Positions 4,077-55,195 of a DNA stretch of 64,000 nucleotides are shown one piece after another. The notes beneath the pieces were generated by a model. That model worked only from the letters and a program-made list of their open reading frames with translations. It was not told the DNA's origin and searched no databases. Origin of the DNA: Ruditapes philippinarum (taxonomy: Eukaryota); assembly GCF_026571515.1 (NCBI RefSeq), contig NW_026866837.1, positions 1 to 64,000 of the forward strand, read 5' to 3'. The position numbers and the translations under genes are program-made. How positions within the stretch are numbered: position 1 is the first letter of the stretch; each line of letters starts with the position of its first letter.

Positions 4077-4535
4077 AAGGTCTATAAATCTGATGTTAAT
4101 GTGGTAAAGATGTTAATGATGTATTGTAATCTATTCGTCTTAACACCACAAAATGCAAATAGTCTCGTACTTAAAAGTGCTTCGCTTAACATATAGTAGT
4201 CTTAAAGGCATATATGCACCGACAAACGCAAAACTGACTTTAAAAACAAAGTTACATGGTCGAATTAAAACAAGATTTATTCGTATTCCAAGAAAACCTA
4301 CTGGTAATAGCAGTTTGCATTTTAGGCATAACAAATGAAGGGGAGGAGGAACTCCTTTTTATTCATCTACTATTGTATATATTAATTCGATACATTATAT
4401 TACATTTAATTAAATTTTTCAATGGAAAATTGTTACAAAGACTTCTAAAGCTGAAATTGTTTCAGGAATTGAGTACAAAGGTTTTGCTCCAGGTTAAGAG
4501 TTATGACCCTTTGATTTTTAGAAGCGACGTTAGTA

Positions 4536-4736
4536 AGTAGTCAAGGGGGGGAGGATAGAACACTTTTTTTGAGTAAAAAAACAAAATCACTTAAGCGTAA
4601 CGACAGCGCGCCGCCATCTTGGAACATTGAGTCTTCGTCTCACGTTACTAACGTCCGCCATATTGCGCCGACGGATCTGGCGGATCATATTGGTATATCT
4701 AGCAGACGACAGTTTAACTTGTCCGCCAAAATTTGA
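4536..4736 (+). repeat. Left terminal inverted repeat (201 bp) of the Polinton
   Basis: Reverse complement of 13769-13969; no mismatch found by manual comparison. Confidence 0.95.
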
Positions 4737-5271
4737 TCTTTTTACAAAGTATTTGTTTTAAGCTGGATTTTAAACCTCTGTAGCAGACGTTCTTTTTCCA
4801 ATTAAAGGTATAGGGCGGTTTAAACCCTCAGTGAAGTAAAATAAGTATTTCATATTAGAGGAAAAATAATTTTACTCGGCCTTTTGAAATGCAACCATGC
4901 TGAAACTAAGCGTACACTCTACATACAAACGGCCTGTTTTGTTTAACGCTATTTTCTATGTAAAGTTGACGTAGAGATGTCTACATGCTTTAACCTACAG
5001 TCTATGGGGTAAATAAAACGAACATAAAAAGCAGAACCAGATTTTGTGACTTTAGACGTATTTTATTTACAGTTATTACAACATAGAATATGCAAGAAAC
5101 AAATGTAAAATACATAAATACAATGCATATACTTTCAAGTAAATACGCTACAATCACAGGAGTCTATAGAGGGGGGTGTTTTTTTTTTAAGATAGACTTT
5201 CTGTGGCTTATTGATAGAATTTCAGACTCCTGTGCTACAATAAACTTAATATTGTGATTTTCAATATATTA

Positions 5272-8200
5272 TTAATAACCGTAAGGGAACGAATTGTAGT
5301 TTTCAGAGATCACTCTCTTGTCAAACACAATTTTATAGTCTTTTATTTCTGTCTTTGTTATGATGTGACACATTTCTCTGTTTCTAACGATTTTATTTCT
5401 GTCCACAACTTTAACGCATTGATTTTGCATCTGTCCCGTTACCATATCTTTCAGTGTATCAAAATTAATGTCCAGTGAATTCTTAAAATTTAGCGTAATT
5501 CCCCTGACTTTACAAATTGAAGATTGACCTTTTTTGTTTGGCTTTTCTAAACAATATGCGTAGTTCTTAGGCCCCCCGGTGATGAATCTAGTTATTTGAT
5601 TGTTTGGAACTTCATCCGTTAAATCTCCCAGGAAGTCACCTAATGGAGGATCCCACTCACCCTGTACAGAGGTGAACACAACAGAATCGGTATCACAATA
5701 CAAAACTCTTTCACCTAATGGTTGTAAATAACTGTACAATTTCAAACGGGCTTGAGCGGTTGTGTATGCAGCCACAACAACATTGGTTCTACCTGATGTT
5801 TCTATGAAATCAGTATTATATGCCCAGTCTAACTGGACTGCTTCATCATTTATAAAACGTACGTTCTTGATTTCTTGTTGGTCAGATGTCATCATATCAA
5901 TGAATTGAGATGGATCATCAATAAAGGTTGTTTGCGTAAGGTTGGAACGTTGTCCAAATTTCCCCCAGAAAGAGTTAAGAATAATTTTAGCTAAAAGTCT
6001 CAGACCAGGATTTTCTTCAATCTTATCATAATCTAGTAAAATACCTTCTTTATCAAAATACTGCTTAATATACAATTGTTTGTCTTTTTCATTTTCACAC
6101 CAGTCTGGCCAACCACTGGCTTCCTGTTTGACTTTCAAGAAAGTATTCACATATTCTGTAAAAAGCCCACCTGTTTTGGTACACGGGTCGTATTGAGCTA
6201 TTTCAGTGAAATGCCAAACTTCGTAAATGGTAAGTAACTTATAACCTTGTGATAAAGCCATCTTAACTTCATCAGTGACCCAAGTGCCTGTAATGGCCCT
6301 TTCATCGTCACCGTGGGGACATTCTCCATTTTTATATGTTTCACTACAGGTGCGACAAAGAGTGAACATAAGCTTACCATTGCATTTGTTTGGCAGGACG
6401 GGAATATACAGTTTTCTTGGAGGTAGAATTTTGCATTTAATTAACCCTTCGTAATAGCTTATATTCTTAAAATTTTCAGTGATTATATTTGGATGGCCTA
6501 ATGGTATTTTCCCTGTTTTATTGATGAATGGATACAGAGATGTGACATCAAAGTACTTAATCTGAGTATCAGCCGTGGACTTTGCATACATTTTAAATGC
6601 TTCAGTGCGTCCACCATGGAAGGCATCTCTCGGTTCTAACGGGGACACAATTTCCAAAGATTCGATGTACTTTTTCATGATAGGATTGGACTCTAATTTC
6701 TTTTTGAAATCACATTCCCATATACTTTCATAAATATACCCTTCAGATTCAAGATACGTTTGCTTATCAAGGGTGTTTGTATATAATTCAGACATGGATA
6801 ATCCATTCACCCGATTAATTGTGTTTTTAGAAAAACATTTAGGGCAGCCATGCCAGAAATCGCCATGAAATTCTAGAACAACTTTTTGACCTTCTGCTGT
6901 TTCATAGTACCCATCAACTTTATATGGTCCTATTTGTTTCTCCCCCTTATTTCGGCCATGTTGGATATATATTTGCCTTTCAAATGCAAGGTAGGATAAC
7001 CATTGATAAGCCATGACTGACTGTTTGGCCTCGGGGCGGTAACCATGAGACGGGATGATACCAATAGTTTCATGATTCAAGAAAAGACTCCTAAAAACAA
7101 GATTACAAGCTGATGCTATTGTAATGCATTTCTCAAATGGGTCTATTCCATCATTGTCCGATGTTTGAGTGAGTTCTTTGAACAGTGTTCTGAATTTTAG
7201 ACAACATTTTCTAAGAATATCAACATCAGATTGACAGTAACGTAATAATTCTGTCTGCAGTGAGAAGGGTTTGTGGCTATTGATAGCATACCACTTTAAA
7301 AACTTCTGACGTGATTCTGGCCTCATGCTGTCGGGGTTGTAATACTTAATGTCAGGCAGATGATCAAGTTCTACCGAGTAATTTTCCGTCGTATTAAATA
7401 GATGAGGAAAGTACCCTTTTGCCAGTTCAGTTTCTCCAAAAGCTTTAGGCATGTCTGCAAGGGCCATTGGAATGAAATTCAGAGAGTCAATGAATCTTAT
7501 TTGAAAGATAGGTACTACAATGGACATGTATTTTGATCCCGTTGTTATCACCTCGGGCAGAATGGCGTTGTCATACAAAAATTTCATGATGGGATAACTA
7601 TCATACCCTTTGAAATTATGACAAAGAACTGTGGCACCCTTATTTTCAACCGTGAATAACCACTTACAGAATGACTCAATGGTATTTGAACCTGAAAACA
7701 CCCATTCATTTGGACCACATTGTGAACACTTTGAAGACGAGGTAACGTCAAGATGCAGACAAGTACTACAAACCCTGTGTGCTACACATAAATTTGCCCT
7801 ATGTTCCATAGATCCACACCAGGACTTCTTACAATTAACACATGTATTGTTAACACCAGGCAGGTAACCAGAAGCGCATTCAAGACGTTTATCCTGTGTA
7901 CATTCAAGATCAAAGAAAATATATTTTGTCTGTTTTTCTCTCTTCGTATCATTTTCAGCTAGAGCGTCATCATCTTTAACCGGTTGCATGTAGCATAAGT
8001 GATTCTCACTAACAAAGTCTTTGCATGTGTCGCAATACTTTTCACCACAAATATGGTCATTTTTATGTTTTGAACGGTTAATAAGTTGGCTGCAATGTTT
8101 GCATCTGTAATACGATTCGCAAGTTGATTTTCCCTTTTCCGTCTTCTTATTGTGCAGATCAAAACAAGTTTGATTTACAAATTTACAGTTGCAGGTTTCA

Positions 8201-9441
8201 CAAAATTGCCAGTCTTCAGACACATCTTCGTGAAGTTTATGGCAAAAGTAGCAAGGGTTATTACACTTATGACGTTCTTTGGTTTGGTATCCTTTCTTAC
8301 ACTTTTGGCAAAAAAAGCTTCTGTTCAAAAATCCTGTCATTGAAGTAATAACGTCATAATGATCATCATGGTTGTAGATGTATATAGGCACACCTCCCTC
8401 TGGTCCTTGATAAATGATGGCATTGAAGTGTGCTTTAGATACTACATGGATCTGATAGTTTACTAGGGCCGCCTGGAATTTCTTCACCTCTTCTATCCCG
8501 CATTTTCCGAGTGGCACGTCCGCTTTTTGATGAAGTTCTTTGGCCAGGTCTCGCTGTATTTGACGACCTTGGCGAATAATATCCCACTGCGGGTGCTTTT
8601 CCACACGAGCTATAGCTGTAGCTAGAGCTCTGCCACAACAAAGTTCATCCTTATTCTTTATTTGTATTACACTTTTCTTGTTCTGTAACATCTGAGTAAT
8701 GTCTACTGTTGGTTTCATTTTGTATCCTGAGCCTTTAACGTTTACGACATGAACCAGTTCTATACCAAATGTCTCGTCAACAACAAACTGCTCATAAGAC
8801 TGTAAAACTCGTTCAATCTCAGAGAGAAGTCTATCAACAGTAAGAGCTGATCTTGGCATAAATGTCAACACAATCGGATAGTCCAGTTCTGGGTTATCCA
8901 TGGACACCCTCACTAAATCATTGGCTGGAATATGTTCTGTAATTCTTGTAAGTATAGATTGAAATATTACTTTTAGTGTTTTTAAAATATTTGGTAAATC
9001 TCTCACTTCCAAGTCCTTGATTTTAATATTATAGTAAGAGGCCGTGGTGTTGAACTTTTCAATTCGTCTTTCGTTTATTTTCACAATGTTATAGTATTCG
9101 GAGGCATTATCCTTTGGTGTTAATTTTTGTCGTTTTCCCGAGCTATTATGTTCGTTATCACCATGAGTTCTTTTCATTCCACTGCCAGTTTGATTTTCAT
9201 GTTGTGAAAAATGTTCATCAAGCGCATCTTTCCTTGTAAAAACTTTAAGGCATTCCGGACAGTGGTGAGAATTTTCGTCTGCATGTTTCTTCATATGACG
9301 ATCTAAGTTCTGTTTTCTGTTAAATGTCTTCTTGCAGCTAGGGCATGTAAATTTTTGCCAATGATTCTCTATTCTTCTGTGCTGAAGCAGTTGACTTAGT
9401 TTAGTGAAACTAGCTCCACACTGTTCGCATGTATAAGCCAT
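5272..9441 (-). CDS. polB: Protein-primed family B DNA polymerase (pPolB, 1389 aa) with N-terminal C2H2 zinc fingers, OTU-like protease, 3'-5' exonuclease and inserted VSR-like nuclease
   Basis: Uninterrupted ORF. ExoI FFDLE, ExoII HNFKGYD, ExoIII YCQSDVDIL. Pol motifs YFDVTSLYP, KIILNSFWGKFGQ, YCDTDS, PKNY. Three C2H2 fingers at the N-terminus. OTU-like dyad NKDELCCGRAL...HYD. VSR-like motif VDGY...EFHGDFWHGC...WEC. Confidence 0.96.
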   Translation of the reverse strand: MAYTCEQCGASFTKLSQLLQHRRIENHWQKFTCPSCKKTFNRKQNLDRHMKKHADENSHHCPECLKVFTRKDALDEHFSQHENQTGSGMKRTHGDNEHNSSGKRQKLTPKDNASEYYNIVKINERRIEKFNTTASYYNIKIKDLEVRDLPNILKTLKVIFQSILTRITEHIPANDLVRVSMDNPELDYPIVLTFMPRSALTVDRLLSEIERVLQSYEQFVVDETFGIELVHVVNVKGSGYKMKPTVDITQMLQNKKSVIQIKNKDELCCGRALATAIARVEKHPQWDIIRQGRQIQRDLAKELHQKADVPLGKCGIEEVKKFQAALVNYQIHVVSKAHFNAIIYQGPEGGVPIYIYNHDDHYDVITSMTGFLNRSFFCQKCKKGYQTKERHKCNNPCYFCHKLHEDVSEDWQFCETCNCKFVNQTCFDLHNKKTEKGKSTCESYYRCKHCSQLINRSKHKNDHICGEKYCDTCKDFVSENHLCYMQPVKDDDALAENDTKREKQTKYIFFDLECTQDKRLECASGYLPGVNNTCVNCKKSWCGSMEHRANLCVAHRVCSTCLHLDVTSSSKCSQCGPNEWVFSGSNTIESFCKWLFTVENKGATVLCHNFKGYDSYPIMKFLYDNAILPEVITTGSKYMSIVVPIFQIRFIDSLNFIPMALADMPKAFGETELAKGYFPHLFNTTENYSVELDHLPDIKYYNPDSMRPESRQKFLKWYAINSHKPFSLQTELLRYCQSDVDILRKCCLKFRTLFKELTQTSDNDGIDPFEKCITIASACNLVFRSLFLNHETIGIIPSHGYRPEAKQSVMAYQWLSYLAFERQIYIQHGRNKGEKQIGPYKVDGYYETAEGQKVVLEFHGDFWHGCPKCFSKNTINRVNGLSMSELYTNTLDKQTYLESEGYIYESIWECDFKKKLESNPIMKKYIESLEIVSPLEPRDAFHGGRTEAFKMYAKSTADTQIKYFDVTSLYPFINKTGKIPLGHPNIITENFKNISYYEGLIKCKILPPRKLYIPVLPNKCNGKLMFTLCRTCSETYKNGECPHGDDERAITGTWVTDEVKMALSQGYKLLTIYEVWHFTEIAQYDPCTKTGGLFTEYVNTFLKVKQEASGWPDWCENEKDKQLYIKQYFDKEGILLDYDKIEENPGLRLLAKIILNSFWGKFGQRSNLTQTTFIDDPSQFIDMMTSDQQEIKNVRFINDEAVQLDWAYNTDFIETSGRTNVVVAAYTTAQARLKLYSYLQPLGERVLYCDTDSVVFTSVQGEWDPPLGDFLGDLTDEVPNNQITRFITGGPKNYAYCLEKPNKKGQSSICKVRGITLNFKNSLDINFDTLKDMVTGQMQNQCVKVVDRNKIVRNREMCHIITKTEIKDYKIVFDKRVISENYNSFPYGY

Positions 9442-9874
9442 GTTTATTGTTGCACGACTGAAACGATAATGAAAAAATAAATATTAGTGTCGAGTTAAGT
9501 AATAAACTTAGAAAAAAGATATATACACAAAAATTAGATTTTGTCTTAATTTTGGTACAAGAAGAAAAAAACTTTTTTAAGAGCCTATAGTTATTTCAAA
9601 TATAAAAAGCCAGGCGAGACTACAAAAAGCCAGGCGAGACTACAAATAGCCAGGCGAGACTACATATTTTACCTTATCGAATTATAAATTATCCTTTCTA
9701 ATATTCGGCACTGATCTTACAGGAAAGAGATTCTCTCTAGAAATGAAGACAAAATAAGGTTCAGTGATTTAAATATCTAACGTTGCGCATGCGCAGAACT
9801 GTTTATTGTACTCTATATAAGATGTGGGTTCGTTTAAAACGTGCCATTTGAGTGCTAGCCAAAGGAGAGTCACG
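9442..9874. promoter_or_regulatory. Putative bidirectional promoter between polB and the ATPase/integrase unit
   Basis: Divergent genes. Three tandem 20-bp repeats AAAWAGCCAGGCGAGACTAC (9604-9663), perfect palindrome TGCGCATGCGCA (9784-9795, NRF1/EWG consensus) and TATATAA (9814-9820). Confidence 0.65.
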
Positions 9875-10214
9875 ATGGAAAATATTACTTGCTCGGTGTG
9901 CAATGAACCGTTTTCTAGTAGATACAGTGTACGTAGACACATAACACGAAAACATTCAGATTTAATTGAAGGAGCTCAGGAGCCACAGGTTGGAGCACCG
10001 CAACACCTCTTTGGAGCATCGGAAAACCATTATGGTACTCCGGTGTACCGGTGCACCGGAGCACCAGGAGCGCATTTTGGAGCACCGGGGCACCATATTG
10101 GTGCACCGGTGCACCAGTGCACCACTCCTCCTCAAACACCTACACTACGATCAGAAGAAAACAATGAAATGGTGTTTCAACATCCCTTCACTATGATGAT
10201 TTCAGGTCCCACAG
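9875..10214 (+). CDS. Polinton packaging-type ATPase, exon 1 (C2H2 finger, GAP-x-H repeats, first half of Walker A)
   Basis: ATG at 9875 lies 55 bp downstream of TATATAA. Reads MENITCSVC...HITRKH...FQHPFTMMISGPT and ends at donor G|GTAAAT (10215), phase 1. Confidence 0.85.
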
Positions 10215-10415
10215 GTAAATACATTCTTACCTTTTTTCTGTAAATTTTATCACCATTTGAGACTATTTTGCCCAATTTTATTCCAGATTTTGATACATAT
10301 TTCTAGATATTTTTTCTACATTTTTTCTTTCAATTTTTCTTTCTTTAAAAAAAAATCATATATTTGCTTAGTTTGAAAAATTTCCAAAATACTAATTTTT
10401 TCTTGTTTTTTTCAG

Positions 10416-11722
10416 CCTGTGGAAAGACGACGATGGTGAAAGAGTTATTGCAGAATCACAAATTGAAAATACAGCCTGGTATTCAAAGGATCGTGTGGTT
10501 ATACAAACGATGGCAACCATTGTACACTGTTATTGAAAGAACTGTTTTTCCAAGAGTAGAGTTTGTTCAAGGTTTACCATCAGACTTAGATGACGACGAC
10601 TACTTTGATACTAAAGTCAACAATCTACTGATCATTGATGATTTGTTCTCTGAATCTGGCAAAGATAAACGCATTACAGATTTGTTTACGGAGGGATCTC
10701 ATCACAGGTCTCTCTCAGTCATTTCAATTAATCAGAATCTGTTTGGAAACAAAGATCCTACACAGAGAAGGAATTGTCACTACTTAATTCTCTTCCAAAA
10801 TACGATAGATAAGCAATCAGTGATGACATTAGCCCGACAGATGTACCCAGGGAATAGTGAAAAGTTGTTGAAACCATTTGAAAAAGCTACCAAGTATCCT
10901 TACGGGTATTTATTGGTGGATTTAAAACCGTTTACACCAGAAGATCAGAGGATAAAATGTTTGATGTCCAAAAACACCAAAATTAATCAATCTACAGAAC
11001 GCGTTCATCACGTGACTCCTCCCCAAGAACCTATAAAAGAAACTGTTTTTCCAAAAGTAAATTATTCTACAGCTGCAGTTCAAACAGATCACATCGAGGA
11101 TAAATCACAAGATAATTACGAAAATAATTCGGAAGACATAATGGAACCTAAAGGACAAGCTTGCGATGATTGTGGGCAATTATTTGACACTAATCACGAC
11201 GTGCAGAGACATGTTAAAAGCGGATGGTGTCCTGAACACAGGGAATCAAGGAAACGAAAACACGAGGAGTTGAGCGATAGCGAGCATGACGAAGATTCTG
11301 TAGAAGATAATGAGGCTTACGTTAATATATGGAAAAGAGCTAGAGAATCAAACGATCAAAAATTCGATAAAATATACAACACATTTATAGACAATGGGGA
11401 GGAACATGATGATGCTCAGGAAATGGCGGAAGAGCGCATACAACCTTATAACGAAAAAGACTTTTTCAGCAAGTATACAACTTTAATAGATAACTATATT
11501 CTTCCACTCAAAAACAGTAGATTACATACACAGATTATGGTCCAGATAGATAAACTGGTTTCAAAAGGTTTAAATCCGACATCAGCCGTGAAAAAAGTTA
11601 TCAGAAAGCATAAGAACTCATTTCAAGACTTGTTTGATATGGAATTTTCTGATGATGAAGAAGAGGAGGAAACAGATGATGACGTCAGCGGGGAGGAGGA
11701 AAGTGACCAAGAAAATATATAA
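10416..11722 (+). CDS. Polinton packaging-type (A32/FtsK-HerA superfamily) ATPase, exon 2, with C-terminal Zn-finger/helical/acidic extension; spliced protein about 548 aa
   Basis: Acceptor ttttttcAG (10414-15), branch-point-like ACTAAT at 10391. Splicing restores Walker A GPTACGKT. Walker B LLIIDD and the SHHRSLSVISINQN motif are typical of Polinton ATPases. Confidence 0.9.
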
Positions 11723-11778
11723 ATTAACATAACTTATCTTCTGTTGTTTATTTGTGTTGTGAATTTTAGACAGTAAAC

Positions 11779-12211
11779 ATGGCTCCTTGGGAGGACTATT
11801 TAAAAACTATTTATTATGATGCTAAACATCCCGGTGCGTTTGCCGGACCACAAAAACTGTATAAAGTTGTGAAATCTGAAGGAAAATTTAATATTGGTAT
11901 GTACAGAATACGTCAATTCTTACATGATCAGGAGTCCTATAGCCTGCATAAACCAGTAAGGAGACGATTTCAAAGAAATCATATTGTAAGTGCAGGAAAA
12001 GACGATTTATGGATGGCTGACTTGATCGATATGGTGAAATTTGCTGATTGGAACAAGGGTTTCAAATACATTTTATTGGTGATAGATACATTCTCCAAGT
12101 ACGTCTGGTTACAGCCGTTAAAATACAAAACTGGAGAAGAAGTAGCTCAAGCGTTTCAGAAAATCTTTACATCTTCAGACAGATCACCGGCCAAACTCAT
12201 TACTGACAAAG
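11779..12211 (+). CDS. Polinton DDE integrase, exon 1
   Basis: IYYD..HPGAF, WMADLID (first catalytic D), VIDTFSKY, LITDK (second D). Ends at canonical donor G|GTAAGT (12212), phase 1. Confidence 0.92.
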
Positions 12212-12396
12212 GTAAGTATTTATTTTTCTACAATTTATTTTTCAATTATAATTAGAGTTAAGCAAGACCTAATTATTTACAACAATACAACTACTGTAAA
12301 TCTGATATTCATATATCACTTAATTTTTATTTAATTATATAGGTATATATATATATATTATGTAAGGCAGATACTACACATTATTTATTTTTTCAG

Positions 12397-13067
12397 GTCA
12401 GGAGTTTAAAGCCAGGAAGGTCCAAGCTCTCATGAAGAAAGAAGAAATTCAATATTTTCCTACTCAAAATGAAACAAAGGCATCTACCTCGGAAAGAGCT
12501 ATTTTGACTATAAAGACCAGACTCATGCGCTATTTTTCGTATTTGGAGACTAGTACATTTCTACCTGTGTTACAAGACATTGCCGATAATTATAATCGCA
12601 CCTATCATAGAACAATTGGAATGAGACCTGCGGATGTCAAGGACACAAACCAGGAAGAAGTGCGTTTAGCTACATACTTTGCGCAAAATCCAAAATCAAA
12701 ACGTCCAGACGTTACACTTAAACCTTTCAAATTTAAAGTGGGTGACTTTGTGCGTATCAGTCATCTAAAAACTGTGTTTACCCGGGCGTATGACCAAACA
12801 TACTCTGGTGAAGTGTTTAAAGTACATAAACGCTTCCACCGAGGCACACTACCTATCTATAGACTTCATGATTTACAAGACGAAGATATTAAAGGAACCT
12901 TCTACGAGAGTGAACTTCAGAAAATTAACGTTGATCCTAATCAGACTTGGAAAGTAGAGAAAGTATTAAAAACCCGTGGCAAAGGGCGAAACAAACAATT
13001 ATTTGTAAAATGGAAATATTATCCGCGTAAATTTAACAGTTGGATAAATGCTAGTGATTTAAATTAA
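12397..13067 (+). CDS. Polinton DDE integrase, exon 2, with C-terminal chromodomain; spliced protein about 367 aa
   Basis: Acceptor ttttttcAG (12395-96); splicing restores TDKGQEF. Catalytic E in SERAILT; YNRTYHRTIGMRP; chromodomain WKVEKVL...VKWKYYP.KFNSW. AATAAA at 13173-13178. Confidence 0.92.
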
Positions 13068-13624
13068 TATTCTTTAGTTTACTTTGCCTTAGTTATGTTG
13101 ATAATTTTGTCAATATACGTTCTGTACTTAATAGTTATATGTTCAATGTTTAAACTGTATTTATCTCATGTAAATAAAATTGGTGAAGTACACTTAAACT
13201 TTGTTGTATTTTTCAATTCAAAACATTTGCCGATATTACAAGCGTGCATTTAAACCTGGGTGTAATAATGCGTTTAAGGTAGTAAACGTCGTCTGCTCTG
13301 ACACAAAAAGTGATCGTCTGCTACACATTTAATCGTTTAACGTTTAACGATATCTTTGACCGCTATACAACAACTAACCAAGTTGTACATATCAATAAAC
13401 TTGCTGATATCTGATTGGCTGTCTAATAAATTGAGCCAAAAAAAGTGGTGAAAAAACTTACCAAATATTGAGAGATTTTCTTTGCTGTGTGTAAATTCGA
13501 ATAATTTTATCTGTAAGCGATTGTGTTGATGTGAACCGTACGCTGTCAATAGCGGTAATGAAATAAAGTATCGGAAAATTGGTTTAAATACTGTACAGCA
13601 GATAAATAGTTTATGATGAAATAG

Positions 13625-13800
13625 AGCGTCTGCTACAGAAGTTTAAAATACTATCTTAAATCAAATATTGGGAAAAACTATTTTCAAACTTTGGCGGCCA
13701 ATTTAAACTGTCGTCTGCAACAGAGGTTTTAAATACATGTACTAGCTAAATATTGGTAAAAACTATTTTCAAATTTTGGCGGACAAGTTAAACTGTCGTC
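13625..13800. repeat. Subterminal imperfect tandem repeat (about 85 bp unit, 2+ copies) running into the right TIR
   Basis: CGTCTGC.ACAGA.GTTT.AAATAC...AAATATTGG.AAAAACTATTTTCAAA.TTTGGCGG.CAA.TTAAACTGT is repeated from about 13627 and about 13712. Confidence 0.8.
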
Positions 13801-13969
13801 TGCTAGATATACCAATATGATCCGCCAGATCCGTCGGCGCAATATGGCGGACGTTAGTAACGTGAGACGAAGACTCAATGTTCCAAGATGGCGGCGCGCT
13901 GTCGTTACGCTTAAGTGATTTTGTTTTTTTACTCAAAAAAAGTGTTCTATCCTCCCCCCCTTGACTACT
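13769..13969 (-). repeat. Right terminal inverted repeat (201 bp) of the Polinton
   Basis: Reverse complement of 4536-4736. Confidence 0.95.
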
Positions 13970-16900
13970 TTAGTAATCTAATACACGGATTCGAAGGATT
14001 GTGTCCCTTGATAACTCTTTCCGCTGCAGGTTAGATCTTCAGCATGCAATGCAATAAATAATAATGAGAAGACATCAAATTCTTGAATTGTACACAAAAT
14101 TATTTCACATGAACAATTATTGTGCAAGTATGTTAACAAGGAAAATTTCATGTCAGAAACTATAAAAAGATCTTTATTTATTTGAAAGTATAAGTTCAAT
14201 AATGTATATATATTTTTAATCTTTTCCCTACTTTTTTAAACTTCGTCCTTGCTACAGTAAGATTTGTCCTTACATTTTAGAATTAACATTTTCAGACCAT
14301 AATATTGTTGTTGGGTCGTAGACCGCTTGACCTTGCGCGTCTGTCTTTTTAGAAAATCTTTTTGAAAACATTTATTTTGCATACTTGCTTATCTCATTTT
14401 CATTTAGACCATGGTACACAGCGTTTGAATGGAACAACTTAAAGTGATATACTTAATTCCCGATTAAATTAAACTTGAACATAACCCTTTAGGTCTTTAA
14501 TAATCAAAATTACATTTTTAACCACAAAGATTTTAAACGTAATATCTTTTGACATCGTACATCCAGACAAATATTAACATTCTTTTTTTAGCTAAAGATG
14601 TATATCCGTTTTTATTACCAATTCATTCTTTTTTAATTCAGTTTTTATGTGTTGTAATGTACCTCTGTAATTGGTCTAAACCTTATCTGTCATGTCGCTA
14701 TGTATGAAGAATTTTTATATGAATGAAATGTCTGTCTTTTTTGTTGAAGATTTCACAGTTCTTTTCTTGAAGGAAATGATTACTTCACACGAATTTTTCA
14801 ATAAAACTAACCGCAAGTGGCGTGCGGATAATTAGAAAACTTGGGTTTAATTTTAAACCTGACATGTTATACGACATGCTAATTAAACTCTCGAGTATAA
14901 AGCGGGCACTGAATGTCCAGTGGTGTCATGTCAGGCCACGCAACCGGGCGCTACGAATTAGACTCATATCTTTATTTTCAATCAAACTAAGTTTAGCGTG
15001 CTTCATAGTTAACACAGTAAATTAATGGATCTAAAGCTAGAAATAGGTACAAAATAGGTATAGTCAAAATGTCACCTGTTATGACAATAGATGATAATAT
15101 CTAAAACAACATAGAAAGAAGAAGTTCGAGTCCCATTTGTAGTGGCCATTGCTAGCTTTAGATAGAAGGTGTGAATCTCAGTAGTGACTCGGGTTGACCC
15201 GAGTTAATCAGAAATACAACCGGCTTTCACATGCCATATTTTGAAAAGCTATTGTATTTTGCGCAATACAAACATAAACGAGGTCGTAATCGAAAGTCGA
15301 ATACATAATTTAATTTTTCCACTATTGACATTATGTAATTAGCAATAGAAAATTAGTTAATTTTACCACATAAAATAGATTAGGATTATCAGATTAACTT
15401 TTATATCTTTTAGTGGTTGTAAACGTTTGATATTTTACATGTATTTGTATACTATAATTGACAAATAAATCTGACTTCTTGACTGCCATCCAAGTAGACA
15501 ATTACAGTCTGGCATGCATGCATGCCTGCATTAACGTGATGTAAATGAAATTTTACCGGTGCTTCAACTGCCAAAATATCACATAATAAGACAACTTTTA
15601 TTTGTACCTGCACATAAAACAGCGCATTGTCAGCATATTAGCCAATTGGTATATATAAAGCAAATGTAACAAGACCGCAAGTGTCAACTATTTCAACGTC
15701 AACAAGTAACAAGTTGATGATGAACGCGGACATGTAGCTATTAAATGGTTTGTTATACAATAGAAAAAGCAAAAGAAGAAAAAAAACTCCAAAAAAAAAA
15801 AACGTAAAACAAAAATAAAACAAACAAATAAAAAAAGGAGATAAAAATCGCAAAGCGGTGAGCGGCAGATATGTCTTATTTTTCAGTTCATTGCCATGCT
15901 ACAGTCACAGTAATATATTGCATTCAACGACAGGCAGATGTAAAAAAAAAAAGATGTTTCAGTTATTTCCTCAACACTGTACCAAGACGATACCGGTATA
16001 AACCGGGAGATTTCGGTATGTATACGTATATAAACCTGAAGGAATTCTTGTAACGGGTTTCTTATGAATGGTACTTTAGCAACACTTCATATTGTATAGC
16101 TGTCAATAAAATTCTGTAATAAATAATATCTTATTGTTTATTGTTGATTACAGGAACGTCAATGTAATTTGCAATTACAGCTCTGTAAGTATAGAAATGA
16201 TTCCACCCAATTTTAACCACAGGTCCTGATTTCAATCGTTTTGTAAAGGAAGAACAGAACGTAATTATCCAGAAGTTTAAAATGTCTTTATCAACTCCCG
16301 GACTGATTGTCATTGGGTAGGACCCAAATTAAGCACTAGACATGGTACAATAGGTAATCGGCATCTAAGTAAGTCCTGAGTCTGAGCCCCTGTTGGTTTG
16401 ATTGGTATGGCTCTAGGTTACCACTGGTCACATGTAATACATGGCAGGTAGGTTTTCAAGCTGGTGATTTGTAAGTTATTTGATTCTGAATGAAGCGCGT
16501 TAGTGTTAACGTCAAAATGCAGAACACATGTGAAATTGATGAAATGTTATAGACAGCGGGTTTTTGACATGCTTACTAAGCCTTTAAAGTTAAGATAAAC
16601 ATTCGGGTGATATGTTTTCAAGTTACAACATACCTCTGTTGACAGCCTGTCCCTGGGTTTGTTAATGCTTGAATTACTCGAATTCCTCTGCCCTCTTTCT
16701 GCTCCCTTACTCGAATCTTTATCCTGTACCCCAGGATCCACATTATCCGTGGAACTTGCAGACACAAGCGCAAAATACATGGTAAAATCCTCACAGGAAT
16801 CAAACTGATACACTATAATCACTTTTCCATATCTCACCACCACACCTCAGGTAAGTTAAATATGCACAGTTAGACATTCTTTAAAGGTATATTCCATTCA

Positions 16901-40729: not shown

Positions 40730-41431
40730 TCAATCGGCGAAGCCATTTTTCTTTGATGGCGGTACCAGGTGTTCTGGAAGTTCATTTGGTAAATCATGTC
40801 CTTCTAATTTTATTTGAATCAGATGATTGGCTAACGCCCATTCATCAGTGTCTAACTGTCCATCTCTATCCACGTCAGCTAACTTCCAAATCTTACCAAG
40901 AACAGAATTTGGCAGTTTGGATTTTACCATTTCAGCTTTTGCTGCAGCGCCTGTTATTTTGCCATTTATTGGGTTTAGTTTAGTAAACACGTCATCATAT
41001 TTGTACTTATCCTGTCCAACGATCCATTCATGTTCGCCCTTTCCAGCGTCTGTCCCTTCCCCTCGTCCAAACCCAAATGGACTCTCATTGTAAGCCTCAA
41101 AAGCACCTCCTTCTACATTTGGTCTCTCATTCTGCATGTTTTGGTCTTCTAGTGGAATCATTTCCATCAACCTTGCAATATCTGTTGCCAACATTTTATC
41201 AACAGTTTCAATCAATTTCGGCCGTAGTTGATGAAATTTGGTGAAATCTTCGGACTGCAGTTGCTCTTGCATACGCTTCAGATTTGGGAAATCTCCTCTC
41301 GAGATTCCGTGCTCTTTTTCAAGCATAGTGTATGTTTCGCCCAGTTGCTTGATCAATTCTTTCTTCTTTGAATCTTTTCCAAACATGGAAGGCATGTCTT
41401 TCTTCAGAGCACTGATGATATAGGCATGAAC
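40730..41431 (-). CDS. EHD1: EH domain-containing protein, coding exon 2 (helical region + EH domain); spliced protein 538 aa
   Basis: Acceptor tactttcAG|GTTCAT gives VHAYIISALKKDMPSMFGK; EH domain KLPNSVLGKIWKLADVDRDGQLD; C-terminal LPEHLVPPSK. Confidence 0.95.
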   Translation of the reverse strand, partial: VHAYIISALKKDMPSMFGKDSKKKELIKQLGETYTMLEKEHGISRGDFPNLKRMQEQLQSEDFTKFHQLRPKLIETVDKMLATDIARLMEMIPLEDQNMQNERPNVEGGAFEAYNESPFGFGRGEGTDAGKGEHEWIVGQDKYKYDDVFTKLNPINGKITGAAAKAEMVKSKLPNSVLGKIWKLADVDRDGQLDTDEWALANHLIQIKLEGHDLPNELPEHLVPPSKKNGFAD

Positions 41432-44400
41432 CTGAAAGTAAATATAACATATGTATGAATTTTACCACAGTTAAATCGTCGTTATAAACATCTTACCTGT
41501 TGTATTTTAAGCAACACAAGTGCAATTATACTGTCACAAAGCATTGTTGTATCTTAGCATTTGATATACAAATTATATACAGTAATTTATTATAATACAA
41601 GTTATTTATTATTATATATTATTTCTCTCTCATTTCTATTTTACATATGTTCTGAAAATGTTTATTTTCTACTTAAAGATTGAAGGGCAACATTTTGCAT
41701 CATAATTAGTTTTAATTTTATTCAGAGCCATTATGCACGATTTTAAGTAATGTCAGGCTCCAAATATAATCGATAATAATTTACATGTACATAACTAAAT
41801 ATATATAGGTACATGTAGATATCTTTATTCACTTGATTATAATAAAATACTCATGGGAAATTAAGAATCCTCTTAATAAAAATGAACAAAGCCAGGCCAG
41901 CTTGTACATACATGTGTAAAATTAATGTATACAAAGACTGTATGACCAAACCTTACATCTGACCAGTACAATTGGGTTACTCTGAGAAAAATGCAAGAAA
42001 ATTCTTTAAAAGTTCATAAATAACAAAATTACAGGCTGATTCTGGTAATTTTACCACCAATTCTGATAAGTGGAGTGACTTAGTAGCAGTGTACATTGAT
42101 TAAAACCCTTACCACACAAAATATCTTTATAAATTGACTTATCCATCATAAAATCTAGACAAAACCATAATAATTTTCAGTGAAATCTTTCAAAATATGT
42201 ACTGACTACATGTATAGTGAACACTATTGACTCTCAATAATCAGAGGGTATGGACACAACAGCTGATCTTGGTCTGCACTGCTACTGGTCTGACACTTGG
42301 TTAGAATCAGCTGCCGCCACCAGGCTTAAGTTTAATTTCCTTAAATCAACCAAAACCAAAACAGGGCAAAAGTCAATTACACAAAGTTCATATGGTAACA
42401 GTTCAGCTCATTATGTAATCATAATATTGCATGCTGGCATACTTCAAGGTGAGTTGACCCTTTGTACTTTGAAAGATAGACAATTTTGTAATCAAATAAG
42501 TGAACTTTTATAGCAACAAAACCACAATCTTCTTCTTGTTACAACTTTTTTGCCAATAAAACTCAAATACATGAAAAGTAACTACATTTTGTAACCTTTG
42601 TATCAGAACAGTTGTTGCATTTCAAGCTATTAAAATATCAAACTTAAATATTTGATATTTAGGATGGGTAAATTCTAGAAAATCAGGAGTATTTATTTGA
42701 TGAACATTGAGTATAATACAATGGAATAAATGACCTTGACCTATGTCATCCCACAAACCCCTTTGCTAACAATTATTGATATATTTGTACTTTTAATTAT
42801 TATCTTTCATCTTTTCCAAATTATAAAGCTTGATGCAAATCCTGAAAACTACACTGATCAGTACTTTAATCAAATTAGGAAAACTGATCAATTTATTCAA
42901 CAATTAATCGTTTAAAATCAAATGTCATTAAACATCCACCTATTGTAAACAGACTGGCAGTTAATAATAGGGAGAGGTAAGATTACTTGTGTCCTACAAT
43001 GTCAAACTTGTAATTAGTGATAATAGGGCGTTGTTATCAGATAAGATTGTTGCCACGACACACAACGAAAAACAACATTACAATTTACTGCATGATAATG
43101 AATCACATTTAGAATCGTATGACCTGATCAATAATATTGTTCTGAAAACATCTTTCCTGTATTCATGTAGGGTATATAAATATATATACATAGCTTTTAC
43201 ACCCAATCAATATAGTTATAAAGTGCTTTATACTAGTATATGTAGCAGTAGTTGTAGTTGTCCTAAAAAATTAATCTAGAATTTGATTTATTCCATGTAA
43301 ATTTCAGTAAGGACCATAATTTATTGGCTTTTTCAAATCTGAACAGGGTAACAAAAAAAACCAACACTTTTTTCTCTGCATATTCTCCTTCAAGGACAGT
43401 TTTACATGTATGATTTAATTATTAATGTTTGTATGTATAATATGCAACTAGGGTTCATTTTAAACTTGGCAGTCCTGATGATAAGGGTATATTACCTTAA
43501 TATATTAACTTGATTTAGATTTTATTTACATTTTAATACCTTGTGTTTTGTACTTGCTCACCAGTTATTTGAATAATGTATTGTCCAGAGTTATTGTAAG
43601 CGCTTCTTAAATGAAAATAATAAAATTAAGTGGCCAACAAAATAAAGAACCTTCAGACTTATACAGGTTCGACTGACTATATTGGTGCCTACATAAAGCC
43701 TATCATTGCATTATCTTGGCCAAACAAAATCAAGTCTTTGTATAAATTGTCTAAAACTTTTATAAGCTTATTTCAATATTCCATTGGACTAAATGGTTTA
43801 TATTCATAAGCTTTTGAGGATGCTGCAAAATATCCTAAAGATACAACTCTGCTATTTCTGATGGATTATTTCTGTCATGTAGGCAAGTGTTCCTTGTACC
43901 ATACTGTATTAAACCTTCTATTATTTATGATATTACACCTGTTGCAGGCTGTCCAGCAATTACACACCTACCATAACTCTTAGTGCCATGACTATGTACA
44001 TGTATATATATCACTTTGATAAGGCAATACAATAGATTACAAAATAATTTAATTGAATTATATTATCTCAGACACAAATGAAGCACCTAAACACTTACAG
44101 TACCATAATGCATAATGCTTAAACAGGAAAACACTATCTGTCCTAATATCAAGTTTGAAATCAAATTAAAAAGTTAAACTCCTATATGGTCAAATAACCT
44201 AATGGGTAATGGTTTTAGAAAAAATAATTATTGCAAATCATGCCTGCATTGGTTTTTAAAGTGTTTTTTTTTTACATAAAGTTGAAAATGAAGAAAGCTT
44301 TTAGCTTGTGAGTCCACTTTCATGATGAACTAATATGGTCTCAGTTACACTCAAAGTCAAACTCTGAGAGACAGTCATCTTGACCATAAGACCAATATTC

Positions 44401-45569: not shown

Positions 45570-47286
45570 AACTATATTATGAATTATGTCTTTAGATAAT
45601 ATTGTTATACTATGTGGACAAACTATATTAAAATTCAGGAGTCAAATTACCATAATACACATTATAGTGACAAAACAGTTTTTAATAGGTCAGGAAAACA
45701 GTTTAACATATATAATTTTTTTAGTCCAAAGATGGAGCTTCATTAGAAGTTAACTTAATTTAAGTAAACTTTTAGTCATCTCCTTTTTTCAATTAAAAAA
45801 ATGGCCTAGAGGTTTCATAAAAATTTCATAATTATCTTCATATTACAATCAGCTTTCCAGATAAATAAAAAAAATTGGATAAAACTAAAAGAAATAATAT
45901 AACTGTGAATTTTATTTTTACGACAACATTCTTTAAACCTTTCATCAGCTGGAACCAAAATTGATTAGCCATTGCCACCCATACAAGGCAAGGCCAACCT
46001 GGACACAAGTGCAGCAGTGCAGCATAATCTAGTTATTTACAGTTGGTAGCTTAATTTTTATATTTTTGATATTGAAATTCCAGAAACGTTGAATGGACTG
46101 TTCCAAACCAAAAACTGGGTAAATCCATTGCATAAAAATTCAGCAGGTTTTGATATAATGCGACAAGATCAATTCTGATAATCAATTACAAAATCACATG
46201 AATCTTCTTATGTTGCAAAAACTGTGTAATCAGGAAGTACAAAATGTCAAGATTTCTTCTTAACAATCGCTTGATGGAGGTCAAAACAATTATCCATTAT
46301 TATAACATCTATAGGTCTTATTTTAAGTGGTAAAATGATCTTAAGATGCACACACCTTCAAGGTTTAAAGGTTCTTCATGTTCTTGAAAAAACTTTTTGC
46401 TGAAGAAATATTGAATGTATGTAAAAATTGGTCTTTATTTCAATAAATATTTTAGTTTTTTGTCACATCCTTAAAGTGCTTGTTATTTTAAAATATCACA
46501 TTGTTAATAATATTTTGCCAACAAGGAAGAATAATATGATATATGACATTGATTTAACATGCCCTGAGAATTTATTAACCTATCGTTTGTGACATTTATC
46601 ATGATTTATGTCTGTATATTTTTGTCATGATTTACAGCCATATCCTATCTATTCCAACAATAATCTTACTAAAAAAATGAAAAATTCTTTTTAAATAAGA
46701 AGTATAAATACTAAAGTTTGAACATTCTTTTAGGCTGATTTAGATCACCCTATTCAAAATCTTACAGGGCTTTTTTCCTTCTCTAGCCCAGGCTGTTTAA
46801 AGTAATTATACATGTATGTAAATGTAGGCCTGTTTCCCTCTGGAAACTTCTTTAAAATCACACAGTTTTCCCCTTAAACTCAGTTAATTCAAGTTTTTTT
46901 CCCCTTTTGCATTACTTCCAAGCCATTTTCCCCAAAATTTAAGGGAAGGTCCCCTTATGGTCTGCCTTATTCAAGTTACTGTTTTGAAGTAATTTGCAAT
47001 GTAATTCATCATATATATTTAAACTGAAGGAAGTTATCTTGAGGGTAACAGGCCACCAAGAATTAACAGTGAATGCTTTACAACTAAAATAAAATAAAAA
47101 TTTATTGAATTTCAGTTTGCATGTCATAATTATATACATGCATCTAATTAAACAGACCAAGTTTATATTAATATATATTCGAATACAATGTACTACTACT
47201 AGTTCTACTACATTAACTGTGAATATAAAGAATTAGAAATAGAAATTAGAAAGTAATTCTAGCCTGGTTACATCTACTATTTATAC

Positions 47287-48201
47287 CTTTGCAAGTCTTG
47301 CCCTCTTAATCAAGTCATTCAGTTTCCGCAATGCCGCATTTCTTGGAAGACTTTGAAGATCACTGAACAAATCTTTTTCTTCCAGCTCAAAGAGTTTTCT
47401 ATTCATATCATGCTGTAAGGGATGGTCCCAGAATGAGCCTATGTAGACCCGTGCAACCTCTGGAGTATTTAAAACTTTGCCTAGTGACCACATTAAGGCA
47501 CCATAAACTCTCATCAACTGTTGATGGTCAACACCATCAGCTTTATTTAAGACTATCCTTATCTTATCATCATATCCTTTAATAGCATCAATAGCACGAT
47601 GGAATTCATCAGATATATCTAACTTGTGTGCATCAAACAAGAGAATAATTCTATCAACTCTTTCCGCAAACCATTCCAAGACACCAGGAAAGTCATATCC
47701 ACGATCGACCCTTTGTTTTTCACCGGACAAAATGCCTGGAGTGTCTACAATAGTGATACTGTCCAATACTTGGTTATGCACTGTAGAACACTGGAACCGG
47801 TTAAGAAACGCATTCCCAAATTTAGTTAATGGTCGGAATTGTTTAGATGGATCTACAACTGCGGCGTTACCTGGAATAACACCGTCCTGATCTCCTCCCA
47901 TTACAGCAATGAACCGGTCAGTTGTTGGTTCTGGACCTATACGTATACCTGGAAAGTCTTGCTCCAAAAGATACCTAATAAAAGTTGTTTTACCAGTGGA
48001 ATACTGACCAATAAGTAAAATCATTGGTTTAGCATCAAAATCGGGATCATCAAGCTTTGGTGAATGGAAATCATGAAATCTGTAAGTTTCTTCTAGTGGA
48101 AGCAACTTTTGTCTATAAATTTTCTTCAAACCTTCAGCCACAGTGTCAAAAACCTCCGGCTCCTTACGACGCTTGTCGTCCCCAGATAACCACCGCAACA
48201 T
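47287..48201 (-). CDS. EHD1: EH domain-containing protein (EHD1/EHD3/PAST1 family), coding exon 1 (dynamin-like G domain)
   Basis: GQYSTGKT P-loop, [24 protein letters not shown]. Ends RARLAK|GTATAA, a phase-0 donor. Paralog assignment is uncertain; likely the single invertebrate EHD ortholog. Confidence 0.95.
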
Positions 48202-48494
48202 CTTGTCTCAAATTAATTCCAACTTTGATAAAAAAAAATAGTATTTGACAGTTTTGTGTAGTTGGGAGTGTACACGACTCACTCACAACCGGAAATCATT
48301 CGACATTAAATGCGCAGATGCAGTAACCTTTTATTTGACCTTTTCTAAATATAGAAACGTGTCACTGACGTAAAGTAATGTTTTGATTGCAGATCTGCAC
48401 AGCTGAGCAACCAGAAATATCTTTAAATTTACTAAAATAAATCGTTTTCTTCGGGTTTTTGCTGGAAATCAGATTGACAGACAGCAGTATAAAG
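48202..48494. promoter_or_regulatory. Putative shared bidirectional promoter of EHD and YPEL5, including probable YPEL5 non-coding first exon
   Basis: Locally CpG-enriched. ACCGGAAA (ETS-like, 48288), TGCGCA (48311), TGACGTAA (CRE-like, 48366), candidate donor AAG|GTTTGT at 48495. The YPEL5 ATG exon is preceded by an acceptor, so an upstream exon is required. Confidence 0.5.
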
Positions 48495-53810: not shown

Positions 53811-54941
53811 AAATCAGTCCCAAGGTTAACAGGTTAGTTTCAAAGTTAACATATTAGTAGGTTATTCACAAGATTAAATGGTTAATTTAATTTAAAAAAA
53901 GAACAAGGTTATTTACAAAATGTATTCATAGTAAAGGTCTGTTAATACATTATTAAGAGGTCTTCACATTGTTTCACATTCTTAGGGTCTACATTGTATT
54001 ACATATGTGTTACCATCACATACACACCCAAGTATCTAAACTGTAAAATATGGGTCATTGGGCTATATTTAATACTATAACAATAACTTAATTTGGACAC
54101 CTGTTTTCATGGTATTAATGCTATTTAAGATTTTAATGCAATGTACATGAAGCATTTGCATTACTTTTTATGTCTCATTGTAAGGAATTTATTGTATATA
54201 AAATGAATGTCAAGTGGTAAAAAAACATAATGTACATGTATGTCATGCTCAGATCATAGTTCAATGTCACACACATTGTTCTGTTTTAACAAATGCTGTT
54301 TTTAGGGAAATATATCAAATTTATTATGCATTGAGTCATGTGTTCATATAAGTCTTCATGTCTTAAGCTCTCAGGGAAGTAAAAGTAATGTATCACCATG
54401 CAAAATGAGAATACAAACTTCAGAAATCCAGGAAGTTAAGCCACATTTAAAAGTTTCCGAATTTACTTAAAATACCATACAAAAATTATTAGATTTTTTT
54501 TTATTATCTTGGCTCACATTTCTATTAATAACTCGTATTCTTTCTGTCAGCAACTGATTCAACCAAAAGGACGAGTGCAGACCAAGATCAGCTGACACAT
54601 CTGTACCTTCCTATCATGGTCTGCACTGTTTGCTTTTCAGACAGTATATGTATTTTTCCTACCCATATATCATTCTGCTAATTGGTTTATCCATATTGAA
54701 AGGTGGAAGTCAGTTTAATGGTATTTAGCAGGTAAATGGGTAAAGAATTCACCTTGACTTGACTAATTCAATTTTGCTTCTTTTCTACAACTTTGTATTT
54801 TCCATGAATGAAAATTGTTCACAAGTGACAGAAATCAATAAATGAAATTGAGATGAACTATGGTGACTGGAATAAATAAACATCCAAACCATTTCAAACC
54901 TATATCTTTCAGTAAAACATTTTATTTTGTAACTTTTTCAG

Positions 54942-55195
54942 GTGCTACAGGAAGAGCATTCCTATTTAACAAAGTTGTTAACCTGACCTACAGTGAAGTC
55001 CAAGACAGAGTTATGCTCACAGGACGGCATATGGTCCGCGATGTAATGTGCAAAAACTGTGATCAGAAACTCGGCTGGATTTACGAATTTGCCAATGAGG
55101 AGAACCAGCGTTATAAAGAGGGGCGTGTCATTCTAGAACGTGCCTTGGTCACTGAAAGTGAGGGTTTTGAGGAACATGTAGGGACTGATAGTTAG
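54942..55195 (+). CDS. YPEL5: Yippee-like 5, last coding exon; spliced protein 120 aa
   Basis: Acceptor ctttttcAG; reads [15 protein letters not shown]...[39 protein letters not shown]. Confidence 0.95.

Follow-up and report, generated by a model that had tools for sequence, protein, structure and literature searches.

Vertebrate Mavericks (PMC8097293) and nematode Mavericks (bioRxiv 10.1101/2022.07.12.499685) share AG-ended terminal repeats, a 6-bp target site duplication, a protein-primed polymerase, an rve integrase and an A32/FtsK-like ATPase, and the passages of these two papers that bear on gene structure describe the core genes as intronless, the introns of the nematode elements belonging to cargo genes. 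The first-pass annotation of the DNA studied here had likewise held Polinton genes to be generally intronless, a view that these accounts bear out for the core genes. The Polinton described here, from the clam Ruditapes philippinarum, has all of the above features but differs from its vertebrate and nematode counterparts in carrying introns in two of three core genes and in lacking capsid, penton and protease.

Tc1-like elements with spliceosomal introns have reportedly been found in mollusc genomes; like the clam Polinton they are mollusc DNA transposons with introns, but they belong to another superfamily. Two capsid-less elements that keep the ATPase, P_Pd1.1 of Platynereis (10,777 bp) and P_Gi1.2 (11,019 bp), resemble the clam element by description, being about 10 kb long and lacking capsid, penton and protease (PMC4028283, Table S1); unlike for the clam element, no introns are listed for them in that paper. 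Spliceosomal introns inside Polinton-like elements are reported for the Maverick-Polinton-like viruses of dinoflagellates, but the introners involved, as characterized in the relevant passages of that preprint (bioRxiv 10.1101/2025.03.18.643946), are young, transposon-derived and mostly acquired after integration, whereas the clam introns are old, conserved in position and mutually dissimilar. Finally, intron 3 of the Drosophila P element, as treated in the corresponding part of PMC7776569, makes the enzyme of a DNA transposon dependent on host splicing, and its retention leaves an N-terminal DNA-binding piece, as would be the case here; the P element and its enzyme are unrelated to the clam Polinton, and the regulation demonstrated for the former would be hypothetical for the latter.

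A literature search that covered sources other than Repbase and the founding paper of Kapitonov and Jurka (2006) returned nothing on position-conserved introns in animal Polinton core genes, and such introns are not mentioned in the parts bearing on gene structure of PMC4856440, PMC8502044, PMC11161782, PMC6839031, PMC12220804 and bioRxiv 10.1101/2023.08.22.554363 (main texts). This locus contributes the comparative test, the exact losses and the four Walker A intron sites in one genome. Since Polinton surveys, according to the gene-calling passages of bioRxiv 10.1101/2025.04.19.649669, rely on ORF callers that ignore introns, and since large interruptions are treated as decay in the corresponding passages of PMC8097293, intron-bearing elements are scored as broken or as ATPase-less; the public model of the copy analyzed here is an example.

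Anatomy of the element

The window, a 64,000-nt stretch of R. philippinarum DNA (assembly GCF_026571515.1, contig NW_026866837.1, positions 1 to 64,000), contains a Polinton of 9,434 bp at 4536-13969. In keeping with this origin, a RefSeq protein of R. philippinarum maps at 99% to a contig of the genome. Its ends are of the Polinton/Maverick type: the AG-terminal inverted repeats of 201 nt (4536-4736 on the plus strand and 13769-13969 on the minus strand) have identical arms that start with AGTAGT, and the 6-bp target site duplication TTAGTA is intact on both flanks (4530-4535 and 13970-13975). The identity of the repeats and the intact duplication point to a recent insertion with both introns aboard.

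The gene set comprises a protein-primed family B polymerase on the minus strand (5272-9441; PF03175, E 2e-47, 162 bits against a cut-off of 25.8) together with two plus-strand genes, one for the ATPase and one for an rve integrase that carries a chromodomain. A TATA-like motif, presumably functional, lies at 9814-9820 (plus strand), 61 nt 5' of the ATPase start codon. Exon 1 of the ATPase (9875-10214) encodes a C2H2 finger, a low-complexity linker and the first part of Walker A, and exon 2 (10416-11722) encodes the GKT residues, Walker B, the remaining A32-like domain, a second C2H2-like motif and an acidic tail. Integrase exon 1 (11779-12211) covers the rve core up to the second catalytic Asp (PF00665, E 1.8e-6, the piece scoring under the curated cut-off); it is followed by a 185-nt GT-AG intron of phase 1 (12212-12396), which interrupts a Gly codon two codons past the catalytic Asp, and by exon 2 (12397-13067) with the C-terminal chromodomain (PF00385, above cut-off). 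A tblastn search of the window with three capsid-like ORFs and one protease of the same genome, penton having no separate query, gave no match to capsid or protease, and between the terminal repeats there is no unexplained ORF longer than 101 aa. The compact capsid-less element is a family and not a one-off deletion, because the three-gene layout is repeated in sister copies, several of which are bounded by repeats at 7.5-10.7 kb, and one of which (L033) has its own 6-bp duplication.

Several further signals were observed around these genes. Three tandem copies of a 20-nt motif at 9602-9663, between the divergent polymerase and ATPase genes, form a candidate site for the zinc fingers of the element. 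A conserved TTTCAGTCG-like motif is found 16 nt 5' of the polymerase ATG (9458, minus strand), and a CAG directly precedes the integrase ATG (11771-11778); both could be splice acceptors or transcription initiators, which they presumably resemble. In some copies, a GT donor-like site directly follows the ATPase stop, about 45-50 nt 5' of the CAG that precedes the integrase. The acceptor-like motif 16 nt before the polymerase ATG is common to seven copies and marks a candidate 5'-UTR intron, for which a conserved donor is absent. Fusion of ATPase and integrase via splicing was not accepted: five Mya models fuse both genes, their junctions differ, and four of them skip integrase exon 1.

An intron inside the Walker A motif

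The first-pass annotation had proposed that a spliceosomal intron splits the Walker A motif at 10215-10415, and the interval proved exact: a GT-AG intron of 201 nt in phase 1 interrupts codon 4 of Walker A on the plus strand, and the same site recurs in other copies (see below). Exon 1 ends with the ISGPT codons plus one base and exon 2 contributes two bases before the CGKTT codons, so that both junction sequences agree with those read earlier. The sequence signals of a U2-type spliceosomal intron are present, namely a GT donor (CAG|GTAAAT), a branch-point-like CTAAT at 10392, a pyrimidine tract and an AG acceptor that ends at 10415 after the T-rich tract. The intron has 21% GC and 51% T, the flanking exon sequence having 48% and 37% GC; the probability of finding GT and AG at both ends by chance, calculated from the base composition of the intron itself, is 6e-4.

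If retained, the intron introduces three stops in the frame of exon 1; the unspliced frame ends after nine codons and yields a 122-residue product with the C2H2 finger. Because of these stops, an intact ATPase would require host splicing, as had been argued before. Stop-to-stop ORF calling splits the gene into separate frames at 9821-10243 and 10349-11722, neither of which matches an ATPase family in Pfam at E<=0.05, which bears out the earlier remark that ORF callers show two ORFs and no P-loop. The public NCBI protein of this copy (P0127, 429 aa) starts at the first Met of exon 2, is identical to the exon from there on and so has no Walker A.

Identity of the ATPase

The affiliation of the ATPase was examined via its relatives. 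P0018, which is 75% identical to exon 2, scores 30.7 bits against a cut-off of 22.8 for PF04665; P0001 stays below that cut-off (19.3 bits), and exon 2 alone is without a match. These profile scores support a grouping of the predicted window protein with Pox_A32-type (A32/FtsK-like) ATPases. A PDB sequence search with P0018 found nothing below E 0.2. The motif that follows QN is PTQRRN in the window group and R-x-I-x-L-N in 8 of the 11 other-type ATPases shown; of 264 database proteins, 177 have the RRN form of this motif, 37 have the R-x-x-x-L-N form, 12 have another form and 38 are unmatched.

The annotation had spoken of a viral-type packaging ATPase. The viral affiliation stands through the relatives, and the role in genome packaging is doubtful, because the element has neither capsid nor protease and because the motif behind the catalytic core differs from that of most capsid-type ATPases of the genome. 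The protein may package in trans into the capsids of full Polintons of this genome, or serve replication or integration. A search of the genome with the capsid family PF21738 gave no match in the target and none in the controls either.

Conservation of the intron among copies

Scoring of 150 of 315 candidates gave 151 ATPase matches in the genome. Introns were sought in 83 loci (74 of this genome and 9 metagenome contigs) as gaps of at least 40 nt rated by a custom splice-site score. A well-scoring GT-AG gap at the site of the window intron, 10 nt from the first Walker A base, is present in 14 of the 83 loci (nine of this genome and five metagenome contigs), and conservation of the intron position in homologous elements, which had been suggested as a check, is thereby established. 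Five further loci (L032, L037, L042, L045 and L138) are gapped at this position and did not pass the score; L042 was later found to have GT-AG ends.

Comparison of 13 copies of the intron revealed lengths of 87-313 nt, distributed over the three length classes modulo 3 as 8, 3 and 2 copies, with 2-10 stops in every copy upon retention. A branch-like motif falls within the final 45 nt in 11 of the 13. Identity to the window intron is 0.25-0.58, as against 0.27-0.54 for shuffled sequences. For the 6 of 12 sister copies without a frameshift, dN/dS was calculated over 15 codons at the end of exon 1 and 150 codons at the start of exon 2; it is 0.055-0.15 on both sides of the intron (9 of 12 comparisons computable), and both exons are under purifying selection. 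With dN/dS low on both sides and the interior at the level of shuffles, it follows that both halves of a motif that depends on the join are conserved, and that the intervening sequence drifts, its ends apart. Position and phase fixed across diverged copies with a drifting interior are characteristic of U2-type introns; introners are recognized as similar intron copies at unrelated sites, and the introns compared here, all from the homologous site, are no more alike than shuffles.

The exons of one sister copy (L033) are joined exactly at the site of the window intron in a RefSeq gene model (XP_060588538.1), which is a prediction. Walker A is unbroken in 142 of the 264 database proteins. Another 15 are ORF calls with their start in an acceptor-like tract, which precedes CGKT in 13 of them and GKT in 2, and the other 107 are truncated in other ways. 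When the proteins with unbroken Walker A were considered as possible spliced transcripts, solely the RefSeq model P0001 matched an intron-bearing copy at 92% or more. Relatives with names come from Mya, Mercenaria, Mytilus, Pecten, Pinctada and Solemya, where they are known as gene models; no relative was found among viral contigs.

The integrase intron behaves like that of the ATPase, with one fixed site that is common to 24 of 61 matching rows, or 15 distinct loci. The integrase intron of L033 and L040 is 87 nt long and stop-free, and ORF callers read through it to give an integrase with 29 additional residues. The first-pass annotation mentioned neither the integrase intron nor the other three Walker A intron sites described below.

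Gain and loss

A careful tree, built from 29 rows, places the intron-bearing ATPases in one clade with support of 98/92; an earlier quick tree had been built without L079, L134 and L147, which were too short. The basal branch of this clade (L052) has neither intron. Three copies nested inside it with moderate support (L035, L038 and L057; bootstrap 81-84) are without any trace of the ATPase intron and retain the integrase interruption. An approximately unbiased (AU) test rejected a single clade of the 19 intron-bearing rows at p 0.0056, for a group defined by intron state and chosen after the quick tree was known. The simplest reading is one gain followed by at least one exact loss; the AU result would also fit repeated gain at one site. 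Exact intron loss is usually attributed to recombination with spliced cDNA, and the exact losses would for that reason be indirect evidence for splicing in the germline. Intron gain into originally intronless genes is seldom caught; the case at hand involves several sites and allows dating on a tree.

A cluster of intron sites at Walker A

Three other Polinton families of this genome also have introns in the ATPase, and together with the site of the window intron (+10) the four sites lie within 20 nt of Walker A. The -3 site (L073, L074 and L112) is in phase 0; the +1 site (L069 and L110, read by eye from the sequence) is in phase 1 in the first Gly; and the +16 site (L041, L043, L044 and L147) is in phase 1 in the Gly of GKT. 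Downstream of Walker A, 13,880 surveyed codons contain no scoring gap and four non-scoring ones (L058, L124, L127 and L143). If sites were distributed uniformly, the probability of four independent ones inside 20 of 630 nt would be 1e-4, and weighting by proto-splice likeness gives 1e-4 to 3e-4 given independent gains; these values apply to a query that began at Walker A, with 18 upstream codons surveyed and about half of the 151 matches examined, and do not hold if a single intron slid. When the 642 positions of 11 uninterrupted genes are ranked by proto-splice likeness, the +1, +10 and +16 sites come at ranks 1, 12 and 23, and the -3 site at rank 518. Latent splice likeness accounts for part of the cluster, and proto-splice bias alone is not enough to explain four sites in a 20-nt stretch. 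The cluster is a testable oddity under any explanation.

The +1 family adjoins a polymerase, a protease, an integrase and an ORF of 425 aa. As a lead, this ORF may encode a double jelly-roll capsid-like protein: it falls with capsid clusters of a protein atlas (score 0.98), and a Pfam family is recognized, under threshold, on 22-30% of the members. Interruption of capsid-like sequence was also observed elsewhere: such a gene on the contig of L074 has a GT-AG interruption, and at L150:6139-8239 (G000:C1945) a capsid-like gene is in three pieces, the first gap being GT-AG at a Gly codon and the second having an acceptor-like end only.

RNA reads

No joint for either intron was found in 4 of the 24 listed runs, none of these four having informative RNA depth on the ATPase. 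Run X24, with about 6% of it sampled, yielded nine reads that match the element, all of them outside the ATPase. In X22 and X23, which are filed as RNA, about 60% of the matched reads continue into unlike sequence, with many loose ends at GATC, and coverage is even over the two strands and over introns, repeats and flanks; the two runs look like mislabelled DNA libraries of the ligation type. The contigs of X1 also look like DNA; they lie on non-coding parts and run unspliced through the donor.

Origin and role of the introns

The host spliceosome probably removes the intron as a matter of routine when the gene is transcribed, presumably with no regulation attached. The TATA-like motif at 9814 would direct transcription of the ATPase by RNA polymerase II, the spliceosome would excise the 201 nt, and the P-loop, judging from its conservation, would be restored in one zinc-finger ATPase of about 548 residues. 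Within a clade of compact bivalve Polintons that lack a capsid, the intron appears to have kept a single site. The introns of ATPase and integrase were likely gained after the lineage became a nucleus-resident transposon, and both would have been carried along because the element copies itself as DNA. The gains likely fell on latent splice-like sites of the Gly-rich motif; an inexact change would destroy the P-loop, and conservation would for this reason be limited to the intron ends; exact losses seem to have happened more than once, likely by way of spliced cDNA. Position-conserved introns would imply RNA polymerase II transcription and nuclear splicing, which bears on the place of Polintons between virus and transposon.

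A regulated gate as in the Drosophila P element, with retention in most cells and splicing in the germline or on lifted silencing, seems to us unlikely; it corresponds to the tissue- or germline-specific switch suggested in the first-pass annotation. The product of retention would be the 122-residue zinc-finger peptide, which has no ATPase and might act as a repressor of the element; alternatively, the transcript would undergo nonsense-mediated decay. Retention does meet a stop in 13 of 13 copies, the window product of 122 aa keeping its C2H2 finger, and there is a precedent in the P element, whose intron 3, when retained, gives rise to a DNA-binding repressor (PMC7776569, in the part on this intron). 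Yet the shuffle-level interior leaves no conserved intronic control element visible, the tail added by retention is anywhere from 4 to 39 codons long, and just 3 of 10 sister copies, several of the 10 being broken, have the C2H2 finger in frame. A gate would also suit the location of both introns in or beside catalytic motifs and the crowding of four sites, one per family, within 20 nt of Walker A as against none in 13,880 downstream codons, and it is compatible with the absence of junctions in the runs examined. However, the introns at -3 or +1, if retained, would leave about 17-35 residues, and viable-looking intron-less relatives occur inside the clade. We advance only tentatively, as an improbable extension, that Polintons of animal genomes repeatedly and independently gain introns in the catalytic core because selection favours an all-or-none splice gate that ties the enzymes to the splicing state of the host cell, the zinc-finger ATPase of the capsid-less lineage having been reused for a step other than packaging; if true, a virus-derived transposon would have come convergently under a control like that of the P element.

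The improbable coincidence of sites would disappear if one old intron near Walker A had been inherited by several families, had shifted by 4, 9 and 6 nt and had often been lost, which would make the cluster a single event rather than a hot spot. The +10 and +16 families would fit this well, being about 60% identical, both of the long zinc-finger form with the RRN motif and offset in frame. The -3 and +1 families, however, are only 31-34% identical to the window ATPase, intron-less genomic genes intervene (L047, L050, L066-68, L070-72, L075, L077 and L111), and slides that change the phase of an intron are generally regarded as rare; we consider common descent of the four sites quite improbable.

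Very unlikely, in our estimate, is a benefit from an early intron of any position that helps the RNA of the element pass as a host message, through export or escape from the silencing of intronless RNA. That ATPase and integrase genes and one capsid gene, from separate families, all have introns suggests a general gain, and intronless mobile elements are reported to be silenced by HUSH in mammals (PMC8770142); but the polymerase, the largest gene, has no coding intron, and the most numerous ATPase family is uninterrupted in 11 of 12 loci (L019-L030), the twelfth being frameshifted. It is hardly conceivable that the copy is dead and was disabled by insertion of the 201 bases: uninterrupted Walker A homologs do exist, even at 74-77% identity in the same genome, and the runs examined hold no spliced read, but GT-AG ends at the same base in 14 loci, unrelated interiors, purifying selection on both exons and the identical terminal repeats of the window element all speak against it.

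Other Polintons and features of the window

The numerous family just mentioned (L047/L050 and L019-L030) has an uninterrupted ATPase of about 46% identity, accompanied by a 191-aa ORF and a protease-like ORF. The three lie between inverted repeats of more than 1.5 kb, and no polymerase or integrase was found in 20 kb around two copies. A Polinton of the full type carries an ORF similar to the TATA-binding protein beside its integrase (L068:906-1448; PF00352, E 7e-28). A second type of polymerase, which has an endonuclease VII-like domain (PF02945), is encoded near or within other Polintons in L041, L061 and L074, and L041 has two elements side by side.

Host exons in the window encode an EH-domain (EHD) protein and a Yippee/Mis18-type domain, at 40730-41461 and 47281-48207 on the minus strand and 54857-55195 on the plus strand. 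Tandem arrays, the units of which measure 28, about 165, about 150 and 41 nt, occupy 49.7-52.4, 37.5-39.2, 60.4-61.7, 33.4-35.1 and 53.0-53.8 kb, and the array with units of about 165 nt is present twice, 22 kb apart.
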